From: a phage
Sequence record: OZ335964.1
Strand: one strand, 5' to 3'
DNA: 64,000 bases
The notes under the pieces were generated by a model. It was not told the DNA's origin, did no database searches, and saw only the letters and a list, made by a program, of their open reading frames with translations. The position numbers and the translations under genes are program-made. This document shows, in pieces, positions 2,519-37,661 of the stretch; positions within the stretch are counted from its first letter, which is position 1; every line of letters begins with the position of its first letter.

Positions 2519-2806
2519 TTACAGCATACTTAATACCGTTTGCCGTGTACTGACCCACATAGCAGAAAGCAGTTCTGGCGTGTGTGGCTGTTTGTAGATA
2601 TCACGTAACTTTCCGATAGCGTAGATATACGCATCACGGTTATCATCGATGATAGCTTGTTCAGCCCACCGCTTAAGGCGTGCAATCTCTCGCGAGTTCT
2701 TACGCAAGATCTTTTCCGCTTTCTTAGCGGCTTTCGCCTCTAGTTCTGCTTGAACTTTGTCTACTTCATTCACTACAATCTGGTCATGTTGTTCATCGTA
2801 AGTCAT
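2519..2806 (-). CDS. hypothetical protein
   Basis: 95 aa ORF, ATG + AGAAGGAAA RBS; intrinsic terminator downstream. Confidence 0.5.
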   Translation of the reverse strand: MTYDEQHDQIVVNEVDKVQAELEAKAAKKAEKILRKNSREIARLKRWAEQAIIDDNRDAYIYAIGKLRDIYKQPHTPELLSAMWVSTRQTVLSML

Positions 2807-2807
2807 A

Positions 2808-3041
2808 TTATTTTCCTTCTGGGATATAGTCGATGATTAAAGAAAATTCATCTTCTGATACATTATAGCTATGTGAGATTGTACCCGTAAAGACCTCAAG
2901 ATCCGGTGACTTGATATTACACGGATCGATAATCACCGGAACGCCGCAATCTCTCAAAAATAATTTGGCGAAATACGGCACAAGGTCAGTTTCAAACTCT
3001 GCTTCTTCCAGCAAACGGGAAATGTTAATTTTCAATCTCAT
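2808..3041 (-). CDS. hypothetical protein
   Basis: 77 aa ORF with ATG start, tightly packed between gp55 and next gene. Confidence 0.45.
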
Positions 3042-3558
3042 AAAATTGGTCCAGGCTAGGCAATTCCTCGGTCAATACATCTTCAACCTTTGGCGCTTTC
3101 GGTTTATTGACCGATTCCTCGTAGTTGTTGATTTTATCGTAAATGTCCTGTATGAATGCCTCATCCGCAATCTGGCACATATCAGCGTCGCGTTCGTCAT
3201 ATACATGATGCACAAAATATTTGTATTTTGCGGCTGTCGCTGTTCTTTCTTTTTTAATGCGCTGCACAAAAGCATTAAAGCACGCTTGCGTAATGTAAGC
3301 ATGAGGATTTTTATACTTTGTCTCGTCAAAATTAATCAAACCCTTGACCGCCGCTTCGATTCCGTCGTCGATCATTTCTTCGCGCCATGTTTGACTATAG
3401 CCAGAAAAGTTAAAACGCCGTGATAGATTTTTAGAGATTTGCATAATTGCTAGACCGATTTGGTCGCTCATTGGCACTTGCCGACCTTCTGCTGCAATTC
3501 GTTGTTTCCAACGGCAAATTTCTTCGTAAAGCTCTTTATTGTTTACATAATCAGACAC
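3025..3558 (-). CDS. 55: late-transcription sigma factor gp55
   Basis: 177 aa; YVNNKEL...FNFSGY...[29 protein letters not shown] matches remembered T4 gp55; GTG start with GAGGGT RBS. Confidence 0.9.
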
Positions 3559-5535: not shown

Positions 5536-5794
5536 AAATCGCCCTCAGTTCTTTATAGCCTCCAATGTGCTCGTTGTCAATGAATATCTGGGGGTATACA
5601 AACCGGAGGCTCTTTGAGTTCAGCCTCCCCGCCAGTTCTTCAATCATATCACGGTCGGGAATAATGTCAACCCCGACCTGCTTGAATACTGGTTTAAGTG
5701 TATACGGAATACCCAGATCATCCAGTAGCTTCATTGCACTAATACAACCATAACAATGATAAGCCTCTTTCGGTATACCGTATATCTCGATCAT
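5525..5794 (-). CDS. nrdH: glutaredoxin-like protein (NrdH-like)
   Basis: 89 aa; CYGC redox motif, YPQIFIDNEHIGGY glutaredoxin signature; position between gp55 and nrdG as in T4. Confidence 0.8.
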   Translation of the reverse strand: MIEIYGIPKEAYHCYGCISAMKLLDDLGIPYTLKPVFKQVGVDIIPDRDMIEELAGRLNSKSLRFVYPQIFIDNEHIGGYKELRAIYDY

Positions 5795-6267
5795 TTCTCA
5801 GCCTTTAATCTTTCTAGTTCTTCTTCCAGTTCCTTGATCCGTTGGTCACGTTCAAAGTCACGCTGTAACTTAGTGGCGAATACTCGTTTAAACTGATTGT
5901 AATCATCGATTTTAAACACTTCTTCTTCGCCATAGCGACGCACAGAAACTTCGTAGTTATTGAAGAATTGTTGCATCATTGCTTCGGATGATAGCTCTGC
6001 TGATACCACTTTAAAATATTGATCTTCTGTAGGCGAAAACCAATTACAAGCATAAAGATAAACCTTTTCATTGTCTGGACACTGGTAAGCCTTACCATCG
6101 ATTTCAATCACAGAAACATATTCAGGTATACTAGATGAATCAATAGCTAAGACTTTAAACGCACGGTCCCCGATAAACTCGGAGATCACACGATTCGCAT
6201 CACTGGTTGCAAATGCTTTACGCGCTTGTTCGTTTTTCCACTGATAGGTCATACCAACAACAAACAT
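5791..6267 (-). CDS. paralog-family protein (GxTYxWK beta domain + C-terminal coiled coil)
   Basis: ATG at 6267 with GAGGA RBS; MFVVGMTYQWKNE...VIEIDGKAY... then EELERLKAEK-type coiled coil. Confidence 0.55.
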   Translation of the reverse strand: MFVVGMTYQWKNEQARKAFATSDANRVISEFIGDRAFKVLAIDSSSIPEYVSVIEIDGKAYQCPDNEKVYLYACNWFSPTEDQYFKVVSAELSSEAMMQQFFNNYEVSVRRYGEEEVFKIDDYNQFKRVFATKLQRDFERDQRIKELEEELERLKAEK

Positions 6268-6268
6268 A

Positions 6269-7093
6269 TTACCATCCTCGCTCTTTACCAATCAAAAATT
6301 CAACTTCACGACGTTTAATGTCTTCTTGAAGGTCTTTAATCTTCTGGCGATCTTGCATGATTTCATCCATCTTGTCAAGTGCCGCAATGAAATCATCGAA
6401 ACGTTCAAAGGTTTTACCTTCATTTGCTTCGCCAAATTTAACCATTGTCAGTCCGTAACGACTACTAAACAGACGTTTCAACTGTCCAACGATCTTAGAA
6501 TCAGTGGTTATAACTTCCAATTCTTCTACTTCACGAAAGAATTTTCTATCAGAATCAATAAACCAGCTAGTTCCTTTATGGTCTCTATCTTCGGTTGCGC
6601 TCATTAGAGTATGGTCTTTACCATCAATTTCAATTACATCAATTTGCCCACATGGACTAACATTTTTAACAGTAAAAGGTCTATAATTTATTGCTCGTGC
6701 AATAACATAATTAAGGTTAGATACGTTTTCAGCATAATGGCAGAAGTCGGTCATAGCATTCGCATCTTTCCAAGTATAAGTTTTACCAACTTCCCATTTC
6801 TGGGGAACTTCTTCAACTTCACGAAAGAATTTTCGATCGAATGGACTAAAGAAATATGTTGCAGTCCAAATGTCTTTTCCTGTAGCAGTTTTCGCCGTAT
6901 GATAAACACCGTCTAGCTCTATTGCATTAATCCAACCGTTACCCTCGATCTCGATGATGGTAAATGGCTTGTCACCAATAGCTGCACTAATATCGCTGTT
7001 AAGTGGAGAAAGAACACCTTCTCCGTTAGTAATAAACTCAGTTTTAGCGTTTTCATCTTTCCAAGTGTAAGTTTTACCAATTTCCCATTTCAT
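6269..7093 (-). CDS. paralog-family protein with two tandem KWEVGKTYTWKD...DRKFFREVEE domains
   Basis: 274 aa; the ~90 aa domain occurs twice in this one protein. Confidence 0.6.
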   Translation of the reverse strand: MKWEIGKTYTWKDENAKTEFITNGEGVLSPLNSDISAAIGDKPFTIIEIEGNGWINAIELDGVYHTAKTATGKDIWTATYFFSPFDRKFFREVEEVPQKWEVGKTYTWKDANAMTDFCHYAENVSNLNYVIARAINYRPFTVKNVSPCGQIDVIEIDGKDHTLMSATEDRDHKGTSWFIDSDRKFFREVEELEVITTDSKIVGQLKRLFSSRYGLTMVKFGEANEGKTFERFDDFIAALDKMDEIMQDRQKIKDLQEDIKRREVEFLIGKERGW

Positions 7094-7105
7094 AATATAT
7101 TCCCC

Positions 7106-7570
7106 TTAACCGATTTTATCAAGTTCGTTTAATGCTTTCTCTGCTTCCTGTATAGCTTGCACCCTTTCCGGCATTTTGTCAAGAAAATCTTTCAACTCTT
7201 CAAAACTGGAGATATGACGCAAGGCGTTAGCACCGATAGCCGCATGTGATTTGCATTCAAAGCGAATTTTATAATTATCCATCGCCAACTTGAGAAGATC
7301 AATTAGTTTAGATTCTTCTGGAATACTAATTTCTTCAAATCTGCTACGGTCGTGATCCAGAAACCAACAAGATAGACCTACATCGGTTGAACTCATATAA
7401 GTTCCATCATGAAGATATACAGATCGCACGTATCCTTTTTTCGCATCAACCGACGCAACTTTAAACGGTAATCGCAGATATTTCAAATAATCAACATCAT
7501 ACCATTTAAAAAATTGGTTTGCATCTTTTACATCTTTCCACGCATAGGTCTTACCAACTTCCCATTTCAT
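7106..7570 (-). CDS. paralog-family protein (single KWEVGKTY domain)
   Basis: ORF track 7106..7585; homologous start MKWEVGK at 7570. Confidence 0.55.
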   Translation of the reverse strand: MKWEVGKTYAWKDVKDANQFFKWYDVDYLKYLRLPFKVASVDAKKGYVRSVYLHDGTYMSSTDVGLSCWFLDHDRSRFEEISIPEESKLIDLLKLAMDNYKIRFECKSHAAIGANALRHISSFEELKDFLDKMPERVQAIQEAEKALNELDKIG

Positions 7571-7574
7571 AATA

Positions 7575-8099
7575 TCATCTCTCATTTTTGATACGTGATT
7601 CTAATTGGATCATACGGTCTCGCGTTTGCTTGTATTCACGGATATTGCCGATCCGGCTAGGCATACCATCAAGCACGCTCTTAATCCCTTCTAGGGTAGT
7701 GATTTTAGCAATGCTATTATGTAACCCCATCTTATCGATCAACTGAATGTCGTAGGCTTCCATAAGCAGACCCAGACGTTCTAAAGTTAGGTCTTCTTTT
7801 TCTTCCGATTCTGGAATCTTAGGTTCAATAGTAACTTCGGTAAAGAAACGACGCTCACCAGCCCAAAACCACACACCGGAAAAGCCAATAGGGGATTCTT
7901 TTAACGTCATAGAGTCGTAACCACTGCCGATAATAGTAATTTCTCTAACATCACCATCATCGTCAATGTCTTCTACCCTAAACGGGCGACCAGCCAACAA
8001 GTCCACAATACGTCTGTTAATAGACGACGAAAATTTAGTCAGTTCGGCTTTCGACGCTTCGCATTCAATCTTGTAAGTTTTACCAACTTCCCATTCCAT
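7575..8099 (-). CDS. paralog-family protein (MEWEVGKTY domain)
   Basis: ORF track starts with GTG at 8108; ATG at 8099 with GAGGTGA RBS. Confidence 0.55.
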   Translation of the reverse strand: MEWEVGKTYKIECEASKAELTKFSSSINRRIVDLLAGRPFRVEDIDDDGDVREITIIGSGYDSMTLKESPIGFSGVWFWAGERRFFTEVTIEPKIPESEEKEDLTLERLGLLMEAYDIQLIDKMGLHNSIAKITTLEGIKSVLDGMPSRIGNIREYKQTRDRMIQLESRIKNER

Positions 8100-8109
8100 A
8101 ATAATCACC

Positions 8110-8613
8110 TCAAATAATTTTCACTGGAATACTATTAACAATCTTGTATTGTACTTGATTGTCAGACCCCCGCCACGGCTTCTTCGTTGGCATATCTTTA
8201 ATATAACGCCCATCGATGAACATGTCAACTGATTCTACAATTTTTCTTTGCTCATCATTCAATTGGTCAAGGGTATAACCGGACCATAGCCAAATATCTT
8301 TATTTGGCATCCATGATTTTACCTCATCGATGATCCGCTGTACACCCTTTAAATTGCGTTTATACAGTGGATCACCACCTAAGAATGTTAGCCCCTGAAT
8401 AAAATCAGGTCTAAGCAGATCCAGAATCAATCCCATTGTATCATCGGTGAATGGTTCCCCGTTCTTAGGATTGAGTAGGCTAGCATTAAAGCAACCATCA
8501 CATGCGTGTGAACATCCGGTAACGTAAAGGGAGACTCTCACTCCCTCACCGTTAACCATATCACAATCTTTAATATCGGCATAGCGTAGTTTGCCGTATG
8601 TATCAGAACTCAT
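8110..8613 (-). CDS. nrdG: anaerobic ribonucleotide reductase activating protein NrdG (radical SAM)
   Basis: CSHACDGC radical-SAM cysteine motif; size and position as T4 NrdG. Confidence 0.85.
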   Translation of the reverse strand: MSSDTYGKLRYADIKDCDMVNGEGVRVSLYVTGCSHACDGCFNASLLNPKNGEPFTDDTMGLILDLLRPDFIQGLTFLGGDPLYKRNLKGVQRIIDEVKSWMPNKDIWLWSGYTLDQLNDEQRKIVESVDMFIDGRYIKDMPTKKPWRGSDNQVQYKIVNSIPVKII

Positions 8614-8755
8614 ATTCAATTACCCCGAACTCGTTTACAATCTGCGCTTTATAGTAACCACCGCGAGATGCCAATAGATAAGCTGGGCTTAGGTATTCGC
8701 ATTCACGGATTTCTACTTGTGCGTTTTCAGTTTCCCAAATCAGTAAAGTCCACAT
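8603..8755 (-). CDS. small hypothetical protein (promoter-stem-loop cassette ORF)
   Basis: ORF track 8603..8830 overlaps the promoter; ATG at 8755 with AGGAGAATCAAAT leader. Confidence 0.35.
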   Translation of the reverse strand: MWTLLIWETENAQVEIRECEYLSPAYLLASRGGYYKAQIVNEFGVIEYEF

Positions 8756-8797
8756 ATTTGATTCTCCTGTAAAGTTGTATCTCGTCTTGATGAATAT

Positions 8798-8826
8798 AGT
8801 ATAGGGGATCTCGCGATCCCCGTCAA
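8798..8826 (-). promoter_or_regulatory. sigma70-like early promoter with spacer stem-loop (TTGACG-N17-TATACT)
   Basis: minus strand; spacer is palindrome GGGGATC..GATCCCC; A-rich upstream tract. Confidence 0.5.
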
Positions 8827-8830
8827 GCAT

Positions 8831-9358
8831 TTATTTTAAATTTTTTCGAATGTATTCAGACCATTCTCTGCCAGTAAGTTCGGTCCCATTCTGGAAACTG
8901 AAATACTCATACGGCATCGAGTCAAGATAAAACAGGATCATACATCGCGCCATATAATACCAATCACGATTAAAGTAAACTACGTTATCACCAGTACCAT
9001 CAACCCCTTTATCATAACCATCGCGGGTACGGGCGACCCATTGAATAGTATCATTTTTCTCACGGATCGTAACAGGTTCCCAATATCCAGCACATCCAGC
9101 ATGACCACACGAACAAGTAAGGAAATATTGACCTTTTGCTTTGTTGTCATCCCATTCACGATGGATTGGTTCGATCTCGTGAAACAGTGCTAAGCAATCA
9201 TGATTATGCAACACTGGCTTACCATCAATCAATGCATGGAATGTATACAAACGACCAGTAGACAAATAGCTATCCTCACGCTCAACCAGTTCAATAGCAA
9301 TCTTTTTAGCTCGTTCTTTGTGTCGTTGTGCTTTACGCTTACGGTTTAATGATTTCAT
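8831..9358 (-). CDS. hypothetical protein
   Basis: ORF track 8831..9379 begins with TTG; ATG at 9358 with GAGGTGA RBS. Confidence 0.5.
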   Translation of the reverse strand: MKSLNRKRKAQRHKERAKKIAIELVEREDSYLSTGRLYTFHALIDGKPVLHNHDCLALFHEIEPIHREWDDNKAKGQYFLTCSCGHAGCAGYWEPVTIREKNDTIQWVARTRDGYDKGVDGTGDNVVYFNRDWYYMARCMILFYLDSMPYEYFSFQNGTELTGREWSEYIRKNLK

Positions 9359-9375
9359 ATTCACCTCACACATTA

Positions 9376-9918
9376 TCAAAGGTCGCGATATAGTACATTA
9401 TGAAAATGAGAACTTGCATTACCAATATTGTAGATAATAAATTCTTCATCCGGCGCTTGCGCTACAAATTGAGTATGAGCAACCGCCACAACCTTAAAAA
9501 TACGATCCGTGATCTTGTGTTTAATTTCGGCTCCTACTTCCATAGGAACATATTCATGTGTTTCTGTTTCAGTCGCAAAACAGCCATCTTCTTCATAAGC
9601 ACGAACAAATCGATCGCAATCAGTACGCTTAACAAATTCAAGAGTATACAATTCTCGTGAATTGTCGGTATAGACCAATACAGAATTATTATGATAGCGA
9701 ATCACATACAGGTTATTATCATCGTCAATTACGCAAAAGCTACGGATTCCTTCGCCTATACTCCAGCAGATATTAACCACCGTTCCTCTAATAAAAAAAC
9801 TTTCCTTTAAATTAAAACTAGTCAATGTGCTAGCGTGCATTTTAACAACAACACCATCGCCAATTTCCAGTTTACGAAGTTTAACTTCTTTGCTCAGTAC
9901 ACAAAACATCATCATCAT
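9376..9918 (-). CDS. hypothetical protein
   Basis: 180 aa; ATG run (MMMM) with GAGAGGA RBS; promoter-stem-loop element upstream. Confidence 0.5.
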   Translation of the reverse strand: MMMMFCVLSKEVKLRKLEIGDGVVVKMHASTLTSFNLKESFFIRGTVVNICWSIGEGIRSFCVIDDDNNLYVIRYHNNSVLVYTDNSRELYTLEFVKRTDCDRFVRAYEEDGCFATETETHEYVPMEVGAEIKHKITDRIFKVVAVAHTQFVAQAPDEEFIIYNIGNASSHFHNVLYRDL

Positions 9919-9937
9919 GTTGTCCTCTCGTTGTTTT

Positions 9938-9965
9938 CGATGTGAGCATTATACATTAGCTAATC
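9938..9965 (-). promoter_or_regulatory. sigma70-like early promoter (TTGACA-N16-TATAAT)
   Basis: minus strand, directly after nrdD terminator, upstream of gene 9376..9918. Confidence 0.55.
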
Positions 9966-9971
9966 ATGTTG

Positions 9972-10003
9972 TCAACACCCCAAAACGAAAAAGCCGACCC
10001 TTT
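9972..10003 (-). terminator. intrinsic terminator after nrdD
   Basis: GC hairpin with GAAA loop and U-run on minus strand. Confidence 0.6.
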
Positions 10004-10018
10004 CGGATCGGCTAAAAA

Positions 10019-11881
10019 TTACATGTGCTTAACGCGGTTTACCATCTCGGAGTGTTTCCCGTGGTTAAATGGACGCAGATCAACAGATCCAAGATATCCA
10101 CTAACGCGCCGGATAACATTCATCTTTTCCAGATTGTCATTGCCGCAATCAGGACAAACAAAACCAGACTCGGTCGCTCTCATTTCCTTAGTAGATCCGC
10201 ATACATGACATACATCAGAAGGAGTATTAACACCGAAGTAATGCAATTTATCCATTGCATAGTCTACTACAGTTTCAAGACCTTTCAGGTTGTTTTTCAT
10301 GTCTGGGAACTCAACATAAGAGATCATGCCACCGGACGCCAGCCAGTGATAATCTTTCTCAAAGTCGATTTTCTCAAACGGTGTGACTTTCCGGTCTACG
10401 TCAAGATGGAATGAGTTGGTGTACCAGTCTTTATCGGTAGCACCCTTAACAATACCAAATTGCTCTCGATCCAGTCGATTAAATCGATAGCAAAGGCTCT
10501 CGGCTGGCGTACCGTAAAGACTAAACCCAAGTCCGGTTTCGTCCTTCCATTTTTCAGTATAATGACGCAAGATCTTAAGAATATGTTTACCGTATCGCTG
10601 CGCATCTTCCGAATCAAACGGATGAACACCAAACAGGACGCTCAATACCTCATGTAAACCAATATATCCAAGAGAGATACTAGCGCGACCATCTTTCAAC
10701 ACTTCCAAAATTTCATCGTTTTGATGAATACGGAAAAATGCACCTTCTGTATACAGCACAGGAGCAACATTGGCTTTAGCCCCTTTTAAAGCGTCTACGC
10801 GACTCATCAGCGCATCAAAGCAAATAGGCATACGATTAGCTAGCTCTTGTTCGAATAGCTCAATTCTGCGCATTACAGACGCTTTACCAGCACGACGCGC
10901 GGCAATAAGAGCAATACGCGGAAGATTCAGAGTCACAACACCTAAGTTATTACGTCCGTCTAATACTTCTTCGCCTTTCTCATTATGCCACACACCCAGG
11001 AAGCTACGACAACCCATCGGGCTAACCGGAACACTAGATCCAGTGATACTACGGTTATTCTTCGCAGAGATATAATCAGGGTAAAGACGCTTACTAGAAC
11101 ATTCCAATGCAAGTTGCTTAATGTCGTAGTTCGGATCTTCCGGTTTAAGGTTTAATCCTTCTTCTAAGAACATCACCAGCTTAGGAAACACCGGAGTGAT
11201 ACCATCTTTACCTAAACCTTTAGTTCGAACGTTCAGGATCGCTTTCTGAATCAGTTTTTCTTCCCAGCTAGTACCCATACCAAAGGTTAAAGTCACAAAA
11301 GGCGTTTGACCGTTGGTAGAGAACAAAGTGTTGATCTCATATTCCAACGCCTGATATCCGTCTAACGTTTCTTTTTCTGTCTTCTCTTGTGCATAGAGAG
11401 TATCAGCTTTGATTCCGTAGGTTTCGGCATCAGCAAGGTGTTTATGATATGTTTTCTCAACATACGGTGCTAACACCTGATCGATGTTTGCAATTGTGGT
11501 CCCGCCATATTGATGACTTGCCACCTGTGCGATAATTTGAGCGGTTACAGCACAAGCAACGCCGATTGATTTCGGACTTTCGATTTGTGCACTACCCAAT
11601 TTAAAACCATTCTCTAACATGTCTTTGAGATTAACAAGACAGCAGTTAGTAAACGGCATAGCGGGTGCATAATCCATATCATGATAATGAATATCACCGT
11701 CTACATGCGCTTTATAGATGTGCTCAGGTAACACGGTTTTAGCAATCTGTTTAGACACAGCACCAGCAATCAGATCTCGACGTGTCGGGAATGTTCGCGC
11801 GTCTTTGTTCGCGTTCTCTTTGCTTACTTCGTTTTCTTTACCCGTTGCGATCTCTGTAATGTCTTTGATTAGTTTTTCCAT
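10019..11881 (-). CDS. nrdD: anaerobic ribonucleoside-triphosphate reductase NrdD (glycyl radical enzyme)
   Basis: 620 aa; C-terminal RVSGYLG glycyl radical motif and CPDCG zinc site. Confidence 0.9.
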   Translation of the reverse strand: MEKLIKDITEIATGKENEVSKENANKDARTFPTRRDLIAGAVSKQIAKTVLPEHIYKAHVDGDIHYHDMDYAPAMPFTNCCLVNLKDMLENGFKLGSAQIESPKSIGVACAVTAQIIAQVASHQYGGTTIANIDQVLAPYVEKTYHKHLADAETYGIKADTLYAQEKTEKETLDGYQALEYEINTLFSTNGQTPFVTLTFGMGTSWEEKLIQKAILNVRTKGLGKDGITPVFPKLVMFLEEGLNLKPEDPNYDIKQLALECSSKRLYPDYISAKNNRSITGSSVPVSPMGCRSFLGVWHNEKGEEVLDGRNNLGVVTLNLPRIALIAARRAGKASVMRRIELFEQELANRMPICFDALMSRVDALKGAKANVAPVLYTEGAFFRIHQNDEILEVLKDGRASISLGYIGLHEVLSVLFGVHPFDSEDAQRYGKHILKILRHYTEKWKDETGLGFSLYGTPAESLCYRFNRLDREQFGIVKGATDKDWYTNSFHLDVDRKVTPFEKIDFEKDYHWLASGGMISYVEFPDMKNNLKGLETVVDYAMDKLHYFGVNTPSDVCHVCGSTKEMRATESGFVCPDCGNDNLEKMNVIRRVSGYLGSVDLRPFNHGKHSEMVNRVKHM

Positions 11882-11925
11882 TGTATCACCTATGAAAAAG
11901 CGGGATTTCTCCCGCTCGTTGATAG

Positions 11926-12420
11926 TTATTTTACCAGTTCTGCTAATTCTTTTTCCGCCGCTTCCAGTTCAGCTTTCAGTTGTTTGATCTCTTGTCGCTT
12001 CTTATTAGCGGCTTCCTGCTTACTATTTCGGATAACCTGATCTAGATACAACTCCCAATCCTGAATATTTTTGATAATGTAGCCGTCAACGTTCAGAGCT
12101 TTAATATTAAGAACTTCTTCCAGCTTACTTAAAGAACGTTGTGTTTCTGGGAAGAAATAGTCATATTCACCTCGGTCAAACCAGTAGCTTATGCCAGCTT
12201 TATCTAAACGACGATGCAATTCATAAAAATCTCTACCATCTTCGACGATGAGTTTGTCTACATCGCCATTACAGTTAACAGAGACTTTGAATCTAATATT
12301 ATCAACCCCACCAAAAACATCAATAAGGATAGTTCCGATCGTGTTATCCGCGCTTCCAGTATCCATAAAAGATTCTAGTTTTTCTTGATTAGTAACGTAC
12401 CAAACATCTTGTTTCCACAT
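11926..12420 (-). CDS. hypothetical protein with C-terminal coiled coil (distant paralog-family member)
   Basis: 164 aa; beta-rich N-terminal part, KQLKAELEAAEKELAELVK tail. Confidence 0.5.
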   Translation of the reverse strand: MWKQDVWYVTNQEKLESFMDTGSADNTIGTILIDVFGGVDNIRFKVSVNCNGDVDKLIVEDGRDFYELHRRLDKAGISYWFDRGEYDYFFPETQRSLSKLEEVLNIKALNVDGYIIKNIQDWELYLDQVIRNSKQEAANKKRQEIKQLKAELEAAEKELAELVK

Positions 12421-12450
12421 AATATAATCCTCTCGTTGTTAAGTGGGAGT

Positions 12451-12478
12451 ATTATAGCATACTCCCTTCGCATGTCAA
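12451..12478 (-). promoter_or_regulatory. sigma70-like early promoter with stem-loop (TTGACA-N16-TATAAT)
   Basis: minus strand; hairpin GGGAGTAT..ATACTCCC overlaps spacer and -10. Confidence 0.55.
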
Positions 12479-13653
12479 GCACTAACTTTTTTCTTTACTG
12501 CTTTCACCTTCTGGCGAATTGCTCGAATCTCTTCGATCTCTTTTTCAGTCTCTTTAACAATTTCTTTGCGATTCTGAATATCTGTATCGAGATTATCATC
12601 AAGTTTAGGCAGCATGTCAATCAAGAACTTTTTAAAGTCTTTCAGGTTTCTGATAACAGCACCTTCACCCATTACCGCCACCCCTACACCATCCGGCAGA
12701 TCGCCAAACAGTTTAACCAGTTCAGACAGATGATCATGATCTTCTAGTGCTTCTTCCGGTTCAGATGGCAGTTCAACAAAGTTATAACGTTCATCATTGC
12801 TGATGATGTGATACCAGCAAAGCCCGAATGATTTCGGTGTATATTCTACACCATCAATTTCAACCGAGTCAACACTTCCATAATCATCTACTTTAGTTAC
12901 CTTAAATCCTTGTCCCAGCTTTTGAACAATTTCAACAACATGACTTGATACAGTTTCAGCGGTAAACCAATATGGCAAATTATGCTGATTTGGCTTGTAG
13001 CGTTCACCTACTTTAAATCTCTGACCAGCCGCTTGCATAGCATGAAATTGTTGTTTCGTGATTTCCGCGAAGTATTCAAATTCGCTACCATCAAACAAGC
13101 AATTCCATTGATCACAAAAACGATCCGCCTTGACGGTTTCACCTTTCGCGGTGATCACGGTAGCTGATCCGTGCAATTCTTCTTCAACTAAAAAGCCATA
13201 TTCGACAAAATCGACAAGTTTCATGGCTTCTTTGTGCTCTGGATCATTCTCTCCCCAGAATCGCTTAAATTCTTGCAAACCTTCCGGGGTAAACGAATAA
13301 CATTTACCTTTTTCAAAGTAAGTCGGCATTGCATCCTCTTTCTTGTTCATAGCTTCGTATGCCTCTTTTGAGATACGTTTAAAGTATTTGCGCTCATTGT
13401 GCATAATCATAGTAGCCCAATAATAAACGATATCCTCAGCGGAATAAACTACATCTCCAGCTTCAATAGTAATAACATGACCGTGGTCATCTTTTTCTAA
13501 TACTTTAAAGCCCTTTTCTACGATTTCAGCAACCCGAATATGACCACGGCGCGAAGCATCGGTCAGAATAATTGAATAGCGAGAAAAGTCTAGAAACTCA
13601 TCTTTACCGCCTTCACGGAATGCATAGTAATGACCTTCAAAGAATTTAGCCAT
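12475..13653 (-). CDS. paralog-family protein, multi-domain (ERKYFKRI and DERYNF repeats)
   Basis: 392 aa; repeated FKV..VD..G.V..IE.DG..Y units. Confidence 0.6.
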   Translation of the reverse strand: MAKFFEGHYYAFREGGKDEFLDFSRYSIILTDASRRGHIRVAEIVEKGFKVLEKDDHGHVITIEAGDVVYSAEDIVYYWATMIMHNERKYFKRISKEAYEAMNKKEDAMPTYFEKGKCYSFTPEGLQEFKRFWGENDPEHKEAMKLVDFVEYGFLVEEELHGSATVITAKGETVKADRFCDQWNCLFDGSEFEYFAEITKQQFHAMQAAGQRFKVGERYKPNQHNLPYWFTAETVSSHVVEIVQKLGQGFKVTKVDDYGSVDSVEIDGVEYTPKSFGLCWYHIISNDERYNFVELPSEPEEALEDHDHLSELVKLFGDLPDGVGVAVMGEGAVIRNLKDFKKFLIDMLPKLDDNLDTDIQNRKEIVKETEKEIEEIRAIRQKVKAVKKKVSA

Positions 13654-13684
13654 AATATAATCCTCTCGTTGTTTAGACGGGAGT

Positions 13685-13713
13685 ATCTTACTACTCCCGT
13701 TTCATCATGTCAA
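13685..13713 (-). promoter_or_regulatory. sigma70-like early promoter with stem-loop (TTGACA-N17-TAAGAT)
   Basis: minus strand; hairpin ACGGGAGTA..TACTCCCGT. Confidence 0.45.
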
Positions 13714-14276
13714 GCGTTAAATGACTTTTGGATCTCTTTCAGTTCAGCTACTTTATCGGCGCTGAATTTAGCGTAGGTATCATGTCGAATAATTTCACTT
13801 TCAAGAAAGGTTTCCAGCCGAGATCTATTTTCAATAAGGAACTCTTTCAGGTCTTCCGCGTTCTTGATAAAGATTTTATTGTCGGTAATGTCATCTTCAA
13901 TCGCAAAGGAGATAGAGCGAACTTTACCAAACAAGTTAATCAGATCTTCCAGAGATTCTTCTTTCTTAACTGGTTTCATTTCTTCAAACTGCTTTTTAGT
14001 GATGCGTTTAAAGTATTTGCGCTCGTTTGCAGCAATCAGAACAGATGCACCTTCATACTCATGAGTTTCTACCAGATACACACGACCCATCGCATCAACA
14101 GTGAGAACTTTAAAGCCGTTACAAAGCACGTCATACAAGAACTTATTATGTTGCGGACATCGTTTGATAAATTCCTCTGCGGACTCAGCATTACGGAAAG
14201 TGTAATAACGACCTCGTTCAAAAACAGCATCAGTTGAAGACTTAGCCGGATACAATTTATACGTTTTCTGTACCAT
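13710..14276 (-). CDS. paralog-family protein (ANERKYFKRI domain)
   Basis: ORF track 13710..14294; ATG at 14276 with GAGGATTATATT leader. Confidence 0.55.
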   Translation of the reverse strand: MVQKTYKLYPAKSSTDAVFERGRYYTFRNAESAEEFIKRCPQHNKFLYDVLCNGFKVLTVDAMGRVYLVETHEYEGASVLIAANERKYFKRITKKQFEEMKPVKKEESLEDLINLFGKVRSISFAIEDDITDNKIFIKNAEDLKEFLIENRSRLETFLESEIIRHDTYAKFSADKVAELKEIQKSFNA

Positions 14277-14290
14277 AATATAATCCTCTA

Positions 14291-14563
14291 TCATTTCACT
14301 AATTGAACAGCACGAAACAGAATGCGGTCACACGGAAGAAGCATAAATTCCCAACGCGGATCAAAGTCTTTAGCGGTATATGTTTTCCCATCAACCGAGA
14401 TTTCACTTACATAACCAATAGGTGACACTTTAAGAATAGTAAATCCATTCTTGATGACTTCGTAGGTATCTTTCAATCCTTCGTAGTCATCCTCTAGGAA
14501 GTCTTTACGTGCTTGCTCAGATTTAAAAACATAGGCCACACCGGATTTAAACATCTTACGCAT
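14291..14563 (-). CDS. paralog-family protein (single domain)
   Basis: 90 aa; FTILKVSPIGYVSEISVDGKTY; AGAAGGAGAATCAACA RBS. Confidence 0.5.
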   Translation of the reverse strand: MRKMFKSGVAYVFKSEQARKDFLEDDYEGLKDTYEVIKNGFTILKVSPIGYVSEISVDGKTYTAKDFDPRWEFMLLPCDRILFRAVQLVK

Positions 14564-14594
14564 TGTTGATTCTCCTTCTTGATTAGATGGGAGT

Positions 14595-14623
14595 ATTTTA
14601 CTACTCCCATTTCATGCTGTCAA
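14595..14623 (-). promoter_or_regulatory. sigma70-like early promoter with stem-loop (TTGACA-N17-TAAAAT)
   Basis: minus strand; hairpin ATGGGAGTA..TACTCCCAT; overlaps gp49 stop. Confidence 0.45.
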
Positions 14624-28779: not shown

Positions 28780-29202
28780 TTATTGGTCCACTTTCAAAAC
28801 AACAGCCGACATTTTACCCGCCAGTCGTTTTGGATTCTCTATAATCATTCGACAGCATAGACCGTGATATGGCTTGCCGTCTTCAATTAGGTCTACTGTC
28901 ATCCCGATCCACATGTTACCGTCAGTAATTTCTAATCGATTAGGTCGGTCTTCCATTTTCAGGAAGTCGAAGATCTCCGGCAAACGAGTTTCTACCTTAT
29001 TGAATAGTTCCATTGTCTTATGTTCATCGATATGACGATCGGTTAGACGGTCGATCATATGCGGACTAAAGCGAATGAAAATATACTCACCGTAACCATC
29101 ATTCAAGCACTTTTCTTTGATCTGCGCATTGGTTTTGCGCATTTCGGTTTCGAAGAATCTACGCAGCTTACTACGGCGAACGTGTACATTAATTGTTTCC
29201 AT
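28780..29202 (-). CDS. regB: site-specific endoribonuclease RegB
   Basis: METINVHVRRSKLRRFFETE...NRLEITDGNMW matches remembered T4 RegB; ATG at 29202 after AAGGAGAATAAA. Confidence 0.85.
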   Translation of the reverse strand: METINVHVRRSKLRRFFETEMRKTNAQIKEKCLNDGYGEYIFIRFSPHMIDRLTDRHIDEHKTMELFNKVETRLPEIFDFLKMEDRPNRLEITDGNMWIGMTVDLIEDGKPYHGLCCRMIIENPKRLAGKMSAVVLKVDQ

Positions 29203-29203
29203 T

Positions 29204-29542
29204 TTATTCTCCTTTCTTAAACAAATTGCGAAGCCAGTATACAAACGGGATTTCTTTAAACTTGAACTTGTCAATAGTTAATTCTTTAGTAGCAAGATGA
29301 ATACCATAAGCATCATGTGTCACGATATGCCATTTTCTATAGCCCAAATGTGAACAACCGTCTGAATCTAGGTTAATAAGAGTTTCTCGCTCACTAGGAT
29401 TATTTTTCCACAATTTTGTAACCGGGTCGCACATAATTCGACCTAGCGTACCATGAATAATCTCACAACGGTAAAGTTTTCCAGCAGTGAGATAGGCGCA
29501 CCCGTCATAGTCGGTATAAACAAACACTTCTTTAACACTCAT
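29204..29542 (-). CDS. small paralog (C.HL.G..W family), double-domain member
   Basis: ATG at 29542; DYDGCAYLTAGKLY and DSDGCSHLGYRKWHIV. Confidence 0.5.
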   Translation of the reverse strand: MSVKEVFVYTDYDGCAYLTAGKLYRCEIIHGTLGRIMCDPVTKLWKNNPSERETLINLDSDGCSHLGYRKWHIVTHDAYGIHLATKELTIDKFKFKEIPFVYWLRNLFKKGE

Positions 29543-29573
29543 TTTAATACTCCTTTGTTGTTTCGATGGGGGT

Positions 29574-29602
29574 ATATTACTACCCCCGATCATGTGTGTC
29601 AA
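29574..29602 (-). promoter_or_regulatory. sigma70-like early promoter with stem-loop (TTGACA-N17-TAATAT)
   Basis: minus strand; hairpin GGGGGTA..TACCCCC. Confidence 0.45.
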
Positions 29603-29848
29603 CTACTTTTTCAAGAATTTTTTAATTGCGTTCCAAAGACCTTTATTCTCAGGTTGTTTTGGTTCTTCGATCAGCGTCCATGTTCGACCGTCTAAGTGTG
29701 CACAATTTTTAAGGCAAATAAAAATCTGGTGTCCCTTATCATCACGGATATAACCACTATTCGCAAATCTTTCATGTGGTGTATATTCATACAGTGTATT
29801 TGGTGTAATATACTTGCGGTTACTATAAGGTGTCATCACATACATCAT
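29603..29848 (-). CDS. small paralog (C.HL.G..W family)
   Basis: ATG at 29848 (ATGA overlap), GGGAG RBS; CAHLDGRTWTLI. Confidence 0.5.
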   Translation of the reverse strand: MMYVMTPYSNRKYITPNTLYEYTPHERFANSGYIRDDKGHQIFICLKNCAHLDGRTWTLIEEPKQPENKGLWNAIKKFLKK

Positions 29849-30039
29849 GGTACTAACTCCCAACGATCACCGCGAAGATGAGAACATCCACCATCAAGAA
29901 GGATCGTAATACGAAACCCCGCATCATCTTCAATATACCCGATAGTCGGTGGATGTTCGTCGTCTCGTGCCGGGGTAAAATCATACATCTTTCCGGGCGT
30001 AATATCTTGTCCTTTATTGCTATTGGTATAAACTTGCAT
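29845..30039 (-). CDS. small paralog (C.HL.G..W family)
   Basis: 64 aa; CSHLRGDRWELV. Confidence 0.5.
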   Translation of the reverse strand: MQVYTNSNKGQDITPGKMYDFTPARDDEHPPTIGYIEDDAGFRITILLDGGCSHLRGDRWELVP

Positions 30040-30060: not shown

Positions 30061-30759
30061 CTAACCACGGGTATAGTGTTCCAGAACAACGGTCAGATGA
30101 ATATATTCTAATAAATCTTTCCAAAAGTCAACATCTGGTTCTTCCGGCATACCGTTTTTCTTTGCCTCTTCACGCGCGAGTTTAACACGCTCGTAGAGAT
30201 CTTTCAATTCTTCCCGCACATTATCAAAGGTTCTTTCTCCTAACTTACACGCTAAAATAGAAGAACGTCGCGCGAGTGGGAATTGTAGATCACCTGTCTG
30301 ATAGATTTCAAGTAGCTGATAACCAACACGCAGAGCATGAGAAAGATCTTTCCAGTTACTGAAATACTTTTCAGATTTTGCTACCTGCTTTTTGAGATAA
30401 CCAGACAAACCCCACATCCCAACATGATAGAATTTATCGCGATGTGTTCGGATGTATTCCCATTCTCTGGAGGATTCAATCAACATGTTACTAGGCGCGT
30501 GCACCATGTCAATAGCGCCAATATCACCTTTACATGCCAGATTGATAAACCGTTTTAGACTGAACATATTAACGTCAATATCGTCTTTGGTGTTCTTGAT
30601 ACCTTGACCGCTAGTGCTTTGGTCATAGTGTTCTTTCATCGTTCCTAAGATAATTTCTTTCGCAGTCGGAACAAAGATACCACGATAATCTTTATCGGAA
30701 TTTTCAGTATCAAGACCGTATAAGTGAGATCCGAAGACCATTTTAACCATTGTATGCAT
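30061..30759 (-). CDS. Pol-beta-superfamily nucleotidyltransferase (putative)
   Basis: 232 aa; FGSHLYGLDTENSDKDYRGIF = GS...G...SD.D nucleotidyltransferase motif near N-terminus. Confidence 0.6.
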   Translation of the reverse strand: MHTMVKMVFGSHLYGLDTENSDKDYRGIFVPTAKEIILGTMKEHYDQSTSGQGIKNTKDDIDVNMFSLKRFINLACKGDIGAIDMVHAPSNMLIESSREWEYIRTHRDKFYHVGMWGLSGYLKKQVAKSEKYFSNWKDLSHALRVGYQLLEIYQTGDLQFPLARRSSILACKLGERTFDNVREELKDLYERVKLAREEAKKNGMPEEPDVDFWKDLLEYIHLTVVLEHYTRG

Positions 30760-30801
30760 AATTAAACCCTCAGTTGATTAAGAGATTGCATCATATCATC
30801 A

Positions 30802-30835
30802 TAAAACGAAAAAGCCAACCCTTTTCGGATTGGCT
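30802..30835 (-). terminator. intrinsic terminator after GrcA-like gene
   Basis: AGCCAAUCC..GGGUUGGCU hairpin + U-run on minus strand. Confidence 0.65.
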
Positions 30836-30845
30836 TGATGAAAAA

Positions 30846-37061: not shown

Positions 37062-37220
37062 TTATTTGCTAATCGCTAAACCCAATCCGAAGAGAGCACC
37101 CGATGCTACAGTATACCCGAAAGTTTCAAATGCAGTAAAGATATCTAAGCCACCAGCTAACAGAGTTGCAGTAAACAGAGTACCAGCTACGAACATAAAA
37201 GTTTTACCGATAAATTTCAT
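37062..37220 (-). CDS. small hydrophobic membrane protein (not in ORF track)
   Basis: 52 aa MKFIGKTFMFVAGTLFTATLLAGG...; GGAGAATCAAAATG leader; promoter-stem-loop upstream. Confidence 0.4.
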   Translation of the reverse strand: MKFIGKTFMFVAGTLFTATLLAGGLDIFTAFETFGYTVASGALFGLGLAISK

Positions 37221-37251
37221 TTTGATTCTCCTTTCGTTTGTTTGTGGGGGT

Positions 37252-37280
37252 ATCTTACTACCCCCGTTTCATGTTGTCAA
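37252..37280 (-). promoter_or_regulatory. sigma70-like early promoter with stem-loop (TTGACA-N17-TAAGAT)
   Basis: minus strand; hairpin GGGGGTA..TACCCCC. Confidence 0.45.
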
Positions 37281-37286
37281 CTGTTT

Positions 37287-37661
37287 TTAAGAAAATTTTA
37301 CTTCGTCTACAATGTCTTTCATGACATTGATTTCCATTCCGGTCAGAACACGTTGGAACATGTGCTGCACATACGCTTTCAGATATTCATTTGATGGCTT
37401 GCTATCAAAAGTCTTTTTAGTATAGTAGTCATCACCGAAAGCTACTGTAATTACATTTTCGTCGTCGTTCCAAGCGATATAAGCAAATTTGCCGTTATCC
37501 CAGAAGCGAGCACTAATTGCTACTTTTGTTGAATCGAATCCTACTTCGCTGTGAGATTCAAGAACTACTTGCGTGCCAGTTTCTTTATGAATGTAGTAGC
37601 GGGATACTAAGTCAAAGTTACGAGTGTAGTGACATTCGAATTTATCTTTAAACATCATCAT
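37287..37661 (-). CDS. hypothetical protein
   Basis: ORF track 37287..37730 overlaps promoter; ATG run at 37661 after GGAGAATCAAAA leader. Confidence 0.5.
   Translation of the reverse strand: MMMFKDKFECHYTRNFDLVSRYYIHKETGTQVVLESHSEVGFDSTKVAISARFWDNGKFAYIAWNDDENVITVAFGDDYYTKKTFDSKPSNEYLKAYVQHMFQRVLTGMEINVMKDIVDEVKFS

Follow-up and report, generated by a model that had tools for sequence, protein, structure and literature searches.

An old trio of small paralogous genes with a predicted SH3-like domain between nrdC.11 and regB of a Krischvirus

The 64,000-nucleotide stretch of phage DNA analysed here (record OZ335964.1; hereafter the window) comes from a Krischvirus, that is, an RB49-like, T4-type coliphage, and matches RB49, Phi1 and further Krischvirus genomes at 97% identity in this region. 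Between nrdC.11, which encodes an RlaP-type nucleotidyltransferase, and the endoribonuclease gene regB lie three small open reading frames (ORFs), here termed P3, P2 and P1, in the order nrdC.11–P3–P2–P1–regB and all on the minus strand (Table 1). Their counterparts are annotated as hypothetical in the RB49 record, as they have been ever since that genome was sequenced. Each gene is preceded by a GGAG-type Shine–Dalgarno sequence; the stop of P3 and the start of P2 overlap as ATGA, and the regB Shine–Dalgarno sequence sits inside the final codons of P1. The start of P2 differs by record, with an upstream TTG (29863) in RB49 and the ATG at 29848 in most others and in the original prediction for this locus; the ATGA overlap and a GGGAG 9 nt upstream favour the ATG, together with translational coupling of P2 to P3.

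That prediction held that the three adjacent genes share an unknown small domain, and the comparisons bear this out. BLASTP aligns P2 with P3 (expectation value E=2e-12, 40% identity over 63 amino acids (aa)) and P1 with P3 (E=4e-5, 31% identity over 67 aa), and returns weak pieces only for P1 and P2; the profile of PHROG 6261 links all three (P1, E=2.7e-36 over residues 3–76; P2, 6.5e-6; P3, 5.4e-29), and that of PHROG 15978 matches P2 (E=2.8e-60) and P3. The shared similarity spans the whole domain of ~60 aa, including an N-terminal [IL]TxGKxY motif, and therefore reaches well beyond the C-terminal core from which the relationship was first proposed. Of that core, written originally as C-x-H-L-x-G-x-x-W, the form C-x-H-L-x4-W stands in all three proteins, and in P1 (CSHLGYRKW) the glycine is displaced by one residue. 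In a six-frame translation of the window the regular expression C.HL....W matches three times, solely in P1, P2 and P3 (mean of 0.135 in shuffled sequence), and searches with a hidden Markov model of the family revealed no fourth domain copy in the 64 kb. A separate minus-strand family of seven mutually similar ORFs occupies 5794–14611 of the window; it is presumably the larger paralog family from which the trio had been called independent, and it is indeed unrelated to the trio in sequence.

An exhaustive profile search of 1.84 billion representative proteins (E≤1e-3) placed the domain in a family of 319 clusters, mostly 58–70 aa long and nearly all small phage proteins; a word-indexed search retrieved only 21 relatives. 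Of the 170 family proteins analysed, 104 are no longer than 75 aa, and the source names of the cluster members are, without exception, 'hypothetical'. The family is defined by the signature motifs [IL]TxGKxY, IxDDxG and CxHLxGxxW. Across 177 domain instances the Tyr of GKxY is invariant (100%), followed by Trp (98%), Lys (92%), Cys and Ile36 (90% each), Thr (89%), and Asp39 and Gly41 of the DDxG turn (87% each); His is present in 80% and is otherwise Phe, Tyr or Trp, and an N-terminal Cys occurs in 35%. Of the domain instances, 79% are acidic; the median net charge is –5 and the isoelectric point (pI) 4.8. No Pfam family could be assigned to P1, P2 or P3, to 69 diverse members or to 10 multidomain relatives; the nearest signals were marginal DUF6501 hits in 6 of the 69 members and, for one fusion protein, a single Tad2-like hit below threshold.

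Members of the family occur in Krischvirus, Vibrio myoviruses, Drexlerviridae (e.g. BASEL phage Bas09), the 42-kb Shigella phage phiSD1, and Pectobacterium and Morganella phages, and the contexts inspected are runs of small, mostly unannotated genes. The domain is widespread: many tailed phages of Gammaproteobacteria encode it by itself, as an early or accessory protein. Two or three tandem copies are detected by profile within single proteins (P0023, P0030, P0024, P0103 and P0166), and the domain also alternates with other modules at the N-terminus of another uncharacterised phage domain. This partner, of ~105 aa and of the form WGEMTDAEKGALLLA...YRIKPEPKRETV...THRITFDxIDGEPD, occurs alone or behind varied small N-terminal modules (examples are P0071, P0085, P0091, P0093, P0124 and P0161); its 347 relatives are all unnamed and without a Pfam family, and provided no functional lead. 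The Drexlerviridae siphovirus vB_EcoS_W011D carries two adjacent domain genes (L011 2477–2689, 70 aa, and 2686–3423, 245 aa); because this phage is unrelated, side-by-side copies appear to have arisen more than once.

The AlphaFold2 model of P3 has a predicted local distance difference test score (pLDDT) of 90, with strands at residues 2–4, 18–22, 33–37, 43–47 and 61–63 and a helical turn at 53–55, and confidently predicts an SH3-like small β-barrel with five antiparallel strands, the last of them preceded by a 3-10 turn. The model of P1 (pLDDT 77) contains one such barrel, residues ~6–75, where pLDDT is about 90 except in an inserted loop; helices 76–87 and 99–109 come after it at lower confidence. 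No match to the domain was found in the PDB by sequence, and a Foldseek search of the PDB with the P1 model gave nothing significant. The single barrel bears on the claim that P1 carries the unit twice, of which a motif echo of eight residues survives and a second domain does not. Specifically, residues 2–18 of P1 resemble residues 49–66 (DxDGC[AS][YH]L; z=6 against shuffles), and the same comparison gave no such echo in P2 or P3. The supposed second unit, DYDGCAYL (residues 11–18), fits the family consensus DYxGCxY[IL], and the surrounding stretch fits the N-terminal consensus of the family, MKVKTDYxGCxYITAGKxY. A profile–profile comparison of the N- and C-terminal halves over the 177 domains was not significant (P=0.085); on this result, and with the short echo confined to P1, internal duplication of the domain was rejected. 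As judged from sequence and model, P1 is one domain plus a tail.

The three proteins differ in what surrounds the domain. P3 consists of the acidic domain alone (pI 4.6), is family-canonical and carries every signature motif. In P2 the domain is followed by a PKQPENKG linker and a C-terminal cationic amphipathic helix, and in the allele of the window Asn and Thr replace the Gly and Lys of the family ITxGKxY motif. P1 retains TAGKLY and CSHL..W, carries 10 inserted residues in the distal hairpin, where the DDxG turn stands in the family, and ends in a C-terminal tail after helix 76–87. The P2 tail, GLWNAIKKFLKK, is kept in type in a distant orthologue as GVWAKIVEKFKKLL, and the P1 tail, KFKFKEIPFVYWLRNLFKKGE, is recognisable there as KFSFKELPFIHWLLNR; P1 of the window ends in FVYWLRNLFKKGE, and its tail has a hydrophobic moment of 0.65. 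The net charge of the tails is +4 in P1 and +5 in P2, hydrophobic moments of the tails examined range from 0.65 to 0.79, and P0025, P0051 and P0084 are further family members with tails of this kind. The tails make full-length P1 and P2 basic (pI 8.3 and 9.3), the domain itself being acidic. Being short, C-terminal, high in hydrophobic moment and net positive, both tails have the sequence pattern of a membrane-targeting helix; their amphipathicity is comparable to that of the FtsA helix, of the MinD/FtsA type. We infer that they may be helices that tether the proteins to a membrane or to a partner.

The comparative evidence points to considerable age. In protein sequence P1, P2 and P3 are 28–41% identical to one another, and no DNA-level repeat is detectable among them. 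The block from regB to nrdC.11 is matched over at least 80% of its length in 59 of 59 Krischvirus records, at 90–99% identity, and the trio has the same gene order in all six records inspected (RB49, SSG23, JK32, Skers, PHB13 and JSE). A distant relative represented by metagenomic contigs, whose NrdC.11, GrcA and RegB are 57%, 68% and 88% identical to those of the window, carries on one contig nrdC.11, then a P3-type gene (58%) and a P2-type gene with an amphipathic tail (47%), and on others a P1-type gene with a tail (38%) and then regB; the P2 and P1 types are not joined on any contig. By their cross-scores, the three types of this relative are clearly one-to-one orthologues of the copies in the window. 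Given the low identity among the paralogs, the lack of a DNA repeat, the Krischvirus-wide block and these one-to-one orthologues, the triplication is ancient. The ratio of non-synonymous to synonymous substitution rates (dN/dS) in seven Krischviruses is 0.21 for P3, 0.17 for P2 and 0.12 for P1, and 0.05 for regB and nrdC.11; as read from these comparisons, the trio is old and is kept by purifying selection.

Within this stable arrangement, individual genes occur as strongly diverged alleles. P2 has two, separated by a dS of about 1 and a dN of about 0.17 in the domain core, within flanks that are 95–100% identical. The alternative allele of P1 encodes 103 aa and was read on 14 contigs, two of them of 170,642 and 8,159 bases; at the DNA level the two P1 alleles are 33–61% identical in the domain part, 96% in the upstream intergenic element and 100% in the tail-coding 3′ end. 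This intergenic element lies in the 60-bp gap between P2 and P1 and fits the definition of the PeSLs of RB49 and phi1, which are early promoters combined with terminator stem-loops and through which modules of hyperplastic regions are shuffled (Arbiol et al. 2010, PMC2839356): it has a promoter resembling the sigma-70 consensus and a polyG/polyC stem-loop, is intergenic, and is repeated in the genome. Its stem-loop folds as RNA at –17.3 kcal/mol (z=–2.2), and the composite motif TTGACA-N9-GGGrGTAGTAAnATACyCCC has four copies in the window against none expected; an Rfam scan of the locus returned a chance-level hit only. On sequence grounds, the element is likely to be an early promoter for P1–regB and likely to be a recombination site, and the position of the allele boundary at the PeSL suggests recombination. 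Two spurious plus-strand ORFs, 29447–29692 and 37161–37391, each span a PeSL copy, and resemble paralogs only through this DNA repeat.

A further variant is a hybrid gene encoding 83 aa on a 3-kb metagenomic contig (L012 45–296; ENA ERZ16268176 scaffold_28569), in which the N-terminal half of P3 is joined to the C-terminal half of P2 at their common GYIKDD stretch. If true, this would cut the array to two genes; it may, however, be an assembly artefact, because only 44 nt of the contig precede the gene.

Two other histories of the trio must be weighed against ancient divergence. The original prediction read the local duplication as recent tandem amplification, that is, as young duplicates whose copy number would vary among close relatives. 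The genes are adjacent, lie on the same strand and have a domain in common, and the P3/P2 hybrid, if it is not an artefact of assembly, makes recombination between copies possible. However, copies that diverged to this extent without a DNA-level repeat, an array that is constant in the six inspected records within a block found throughout Krischvirus, and one-to-one orthologues in a relative so distant in NrdC.11 all contradict a recent origin, which on these comparisons is refuted and to which we attach almost no credence. Separate acquisition is a better rival, unlikely in our estimate but to be taken seriously: PeSL-flanked ORFan cassettes from other phages with this widespread domain would have landed side by side in a hyperplastic region. 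Such shuffling is documented for RB49 and phi1 (PMC2839356), a PeSL lies between P2 and P1, and whole alleles of P1 and P2 have been replaced inside near-identical flanks. In addition, the cores of P1 and P2 are 41–46% identical to members from unrelated phages, compared to 28–41% to their neighbours; since they are at least as close to the former, duplication in situ is not demonstrated. Against separate acquisition, P2 and P3 have derived features in common (ITP..Y..TP and GYIxDD), their translation is coupled and no PeSL separates them. Elsewhere the domain recurs in tandem pairs and as repeats within genes, so that it apparently duplicates readily, and a domain of 60 aa is too short for phylogenetic resolution. 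Duplication in situ is therefore plausible from the sequences, above all for P2 and P3.

Taken as a whole, the explanation that accounts best for these observations, and that we rate somewhat above even, is one of long-diverged paralogs with an SH3-like domain that have become specialised types, act as binding proteins and vary by allele swapping. The anatomy and evolution described above are held with high confidence; the binding mechanism is put forward tentatively, at clearly less than even. According to this proposal, the trio would be transcribed early, probably, with the PeSL promoter in front of P1, and its products would represent three specialisations: a bare acidic domain (P3), a domain with a linker and cationic helix (P2), and a domain that contains an insertion and is extended by a further helix and a hydrophobic-basic tail (P1). 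Each would be a small stoichiometric binder of a host or host-defence component, engaging it via the conserved Lys, Tyr, Cys-x-His and Trp positions; P1 and P2 would be tethered by their tails to a membrane or partner, and variation would proceed by whole-allele swaps, recombining at the PeSL and the conserved flanks. A binding role is suggested by the tiny, acidic, stand-alone barrel with few invariant aromatic and polar residues, by its reuse as a module and its early accessory location, and also by the long retention of three specialised copies and the deep divergence of alleles in conserved flanks. Tandem repetition within single proteins and use as an interchangeable N-terminal module likewise fit a binding module.

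Several points weigh against this explanation. Neither a named homologue nor an informative fusion points to a function. That the conserved residues cluster at one site is an assumption, the window allele of P2 is without the Lys that is otherwise 92% conserved, and the alternative P1 allele is without the Thr, Gly and His, so that the copies need not all share one ligand. The early timing is inferred from the promoter motif alone. As for the tails, the P1 helix is of low confidence in the AlphaFold2 model (pLDDT 57–66), and conservation of the P1 tail could stem in part from the overlapping regB translation signals.

Other functions can be proposed for the same barrel. The array stands between an RNA endonuclease and an RlaP-type nucleotidyltransferase, which raises the possibility that the proteins are small barrels that bind nucleic acids, comparable to Sso7d, KOW, Tudor or the integrase C-terminal domain, and act together with RegB and NrdC.11 on RNA of the host or the phage; the basic pI values of full-length P1 and P2 would suit this, and the invariant Tyr and Trp, together with the conserved Lys, could stack on or contact bases. 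We consider it improbable, however, as the basicity of P1 and P2 comes from their tails, and the acidic character of the domain favours protein binding over general nucleic-acid binding. Moreover, the family members whose contexts were checked in the Vibrio phage, Drexlerviridae, phiSD1 and metagenomic contigs are not adjacent to regB and nrdC.11, and the same slot in T4 holds the unrelated genes vs.3–vs.5. Very improbable, in our judgement, is a functional core in which Cys-x-His forms a metal site, as in a mini zinc-binding domain, or provides a redox-active cysteine. The conservation of Cys and His in the family, and the second, N-terminal Cys in 35% of members and in P1, would speak for such a core, but P3 has a single Cys and no Pfam zinc-finger family matches. 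A zinc-binding mini-domain was rejected on conservation: one Cys and one His are conserved, and zinc needs three or four ligands. His is also exchanged for Phe, Tyr or Trp in ~15% of instances, including natural alleles of P2 (CAYL) and P1 (CVFI), a pattern typical of a packing position. Starting instead from the preferred explanation, a binding role, a bolder version can be formulated, which we regard as speculative and rather unlikely: the domain would be an undescribed, widespread phage binding module in which Tyr, Trp, Lys and Cys-x-His form one ligand site, and it would serve to neutralise a conserved component of the host or of a defence system, or to sequester a small signalling molecule; Krischviruses would retain one soluble and two tail-tethered versions, and the diverged alleles would record an arms race.

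Some features of the surrounding region concern annotation and gene content. The P1 orthologue is named 'endoribonuclease' or 'RegB' in MK962753 (JK32_00097), MW748999 (SKERS_232) and MK327932/MK327947. An identity of P1 with RegB was rejected, as P1 has no Pfam hit at E≤1 and BLASTP against the RegB of the window produced no alignment at E≤100; the sequences make the label look like spill-over from the adjoining gene. On the other side of the array, JSE, JK32 and two metagenomic phages carry an HNH/homing endonuclease gene between vs.6/grcA and nrdC.11 (L008 543–1073, L005 469–1062, L013 747–1274 and L017 2674–3270). The corresponding slot of the window, 30760–30845, is merely an 86-bp gap with a terminator-like hairpin and a promoter-like site.

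Table 1. Coordinates of the trio, its flanking genes and associated sequence features in the window
Feature	Position	Strand	Description
nrdC.11 (RlaP-type nucleotidyltransferase)	30061..30759	-	Upstream flank; Pfam RlaP E=3.1e-14
P3	29845..30039	-	64 aa; RB49p097 orthologue; ORF, PHROG 6261 match
P2	29603..29848	-	81 aa; RB49p096 orthologue; ORF, PHROG 15978 and 6261 matches
P2 tail GLWNAIKKFLKK	29606..29641	-	Amphipathic, basic; hydrophobic moment 0.76
PeSL cassette, P2–P1 intergenic gap	29568..29602	-	TTGACA-17-TAATAT promoter overlapping GGGGGTA/TACCCCC stem-loop
P1	29204..29542	-	112 aa; RB49p095 orthologue; ORF, PHROG 6261 match
P1 DYDGCAYL, residues 11–18	29489..29512	-	'Second unit' of the original prediction; family consensus DYxGCxY[IL]
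P1 tail KFKFKEIPFVYWLRNLFKKGE	29207..29269	-	Identical in both P1 alleles; helix predicted at residues 99–109
regB endoribonuclease	28780..29202	-	Downstream flank, outside the domain family; Pfam REGB_T4 E=1.9e-48
C.HL....W matches	29330-29356, 29678-29704, 29860-29886	-	P1, P2 and P3, respectively; six-frame regular expression
Other copies of the composite PeSL motif	13679-13713, 14589-14623, 37246-37280	-	Motif scan of the window

The trio was also compared with known systems. Gp54 of Escherichia phage Bas11 (PDB 9axb) is a 66-aa small β-barrel, of unknown function, that triggers the defence protein CapRelSJ46 (PMC11578894); no sequence homology relates the trio to it. If the family does consist of anti-defence or host-takeover binders, the three specialised copies and their natural alleles would offer a ready comparison set. 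SH3, bacterial SH3b, KOW and the PhnA C-terminal domain match the predicted model in small-barrel fold, with scores under the usual level for homology. The trio was not identified as SH3 proper, the proline-peptide binder, since no SH3 Pfam match at E≤1 was found for the three proteins or the 69 members, and the conserved TxGKxY, DDxG, CxHL and W differ from the SH3 peptide-binding motif. PHROG 6261 and 15978, both of unknown function, match directly: their profiles cover the full domain of the trio and match 64 and 61, respectively, of the 69 diverse members. PHROG, however, splits the domain family in two and records neither function nor structure, nor the Krischvirus paralogy or the signature, and a full-text literature search on the two identifiers found nothing. 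The present analysis thus gains a domain definition (signature, fold and about 320 clusters) for a family without a Pfam entry, corrects the GenBank endoribonuclease labels on P1, and shows that the trio, far from being a recent amplification, is a subfunctionalised set of long standing in which alleles are swapped.

At the level of the locus, T4 has three small early genes, vs.3, vs.4 and vs.5, at the equivalent position between regB and vs.6. Orthology was rejected, as the family profile reached a best E of 0.4 against T4 vs.3–vs.7, tk.1–3 and mobD.3–5 (hmmsearch, 11 sequences). The locus is an ordinary accessory small-protein part of the T4-type hyperplastic region, and it is here that the PeSL-flanked cassettes of RB49 and phi1, the text on which (PMC2839356) does not mention regB, nrdC.11 or paralogs, provide a close parallel. 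The trio resembles these cassettes in its hyperplastic setting, in the canonical PeSL directly upstream of P1, and in the cassette-like replacement of P1 and P2 alleles. Unlike the PeSL ORFan cassettes, it is not orphan, as it belongs to the 319-cluster family, and it is fixed in the genus rather than variably present.

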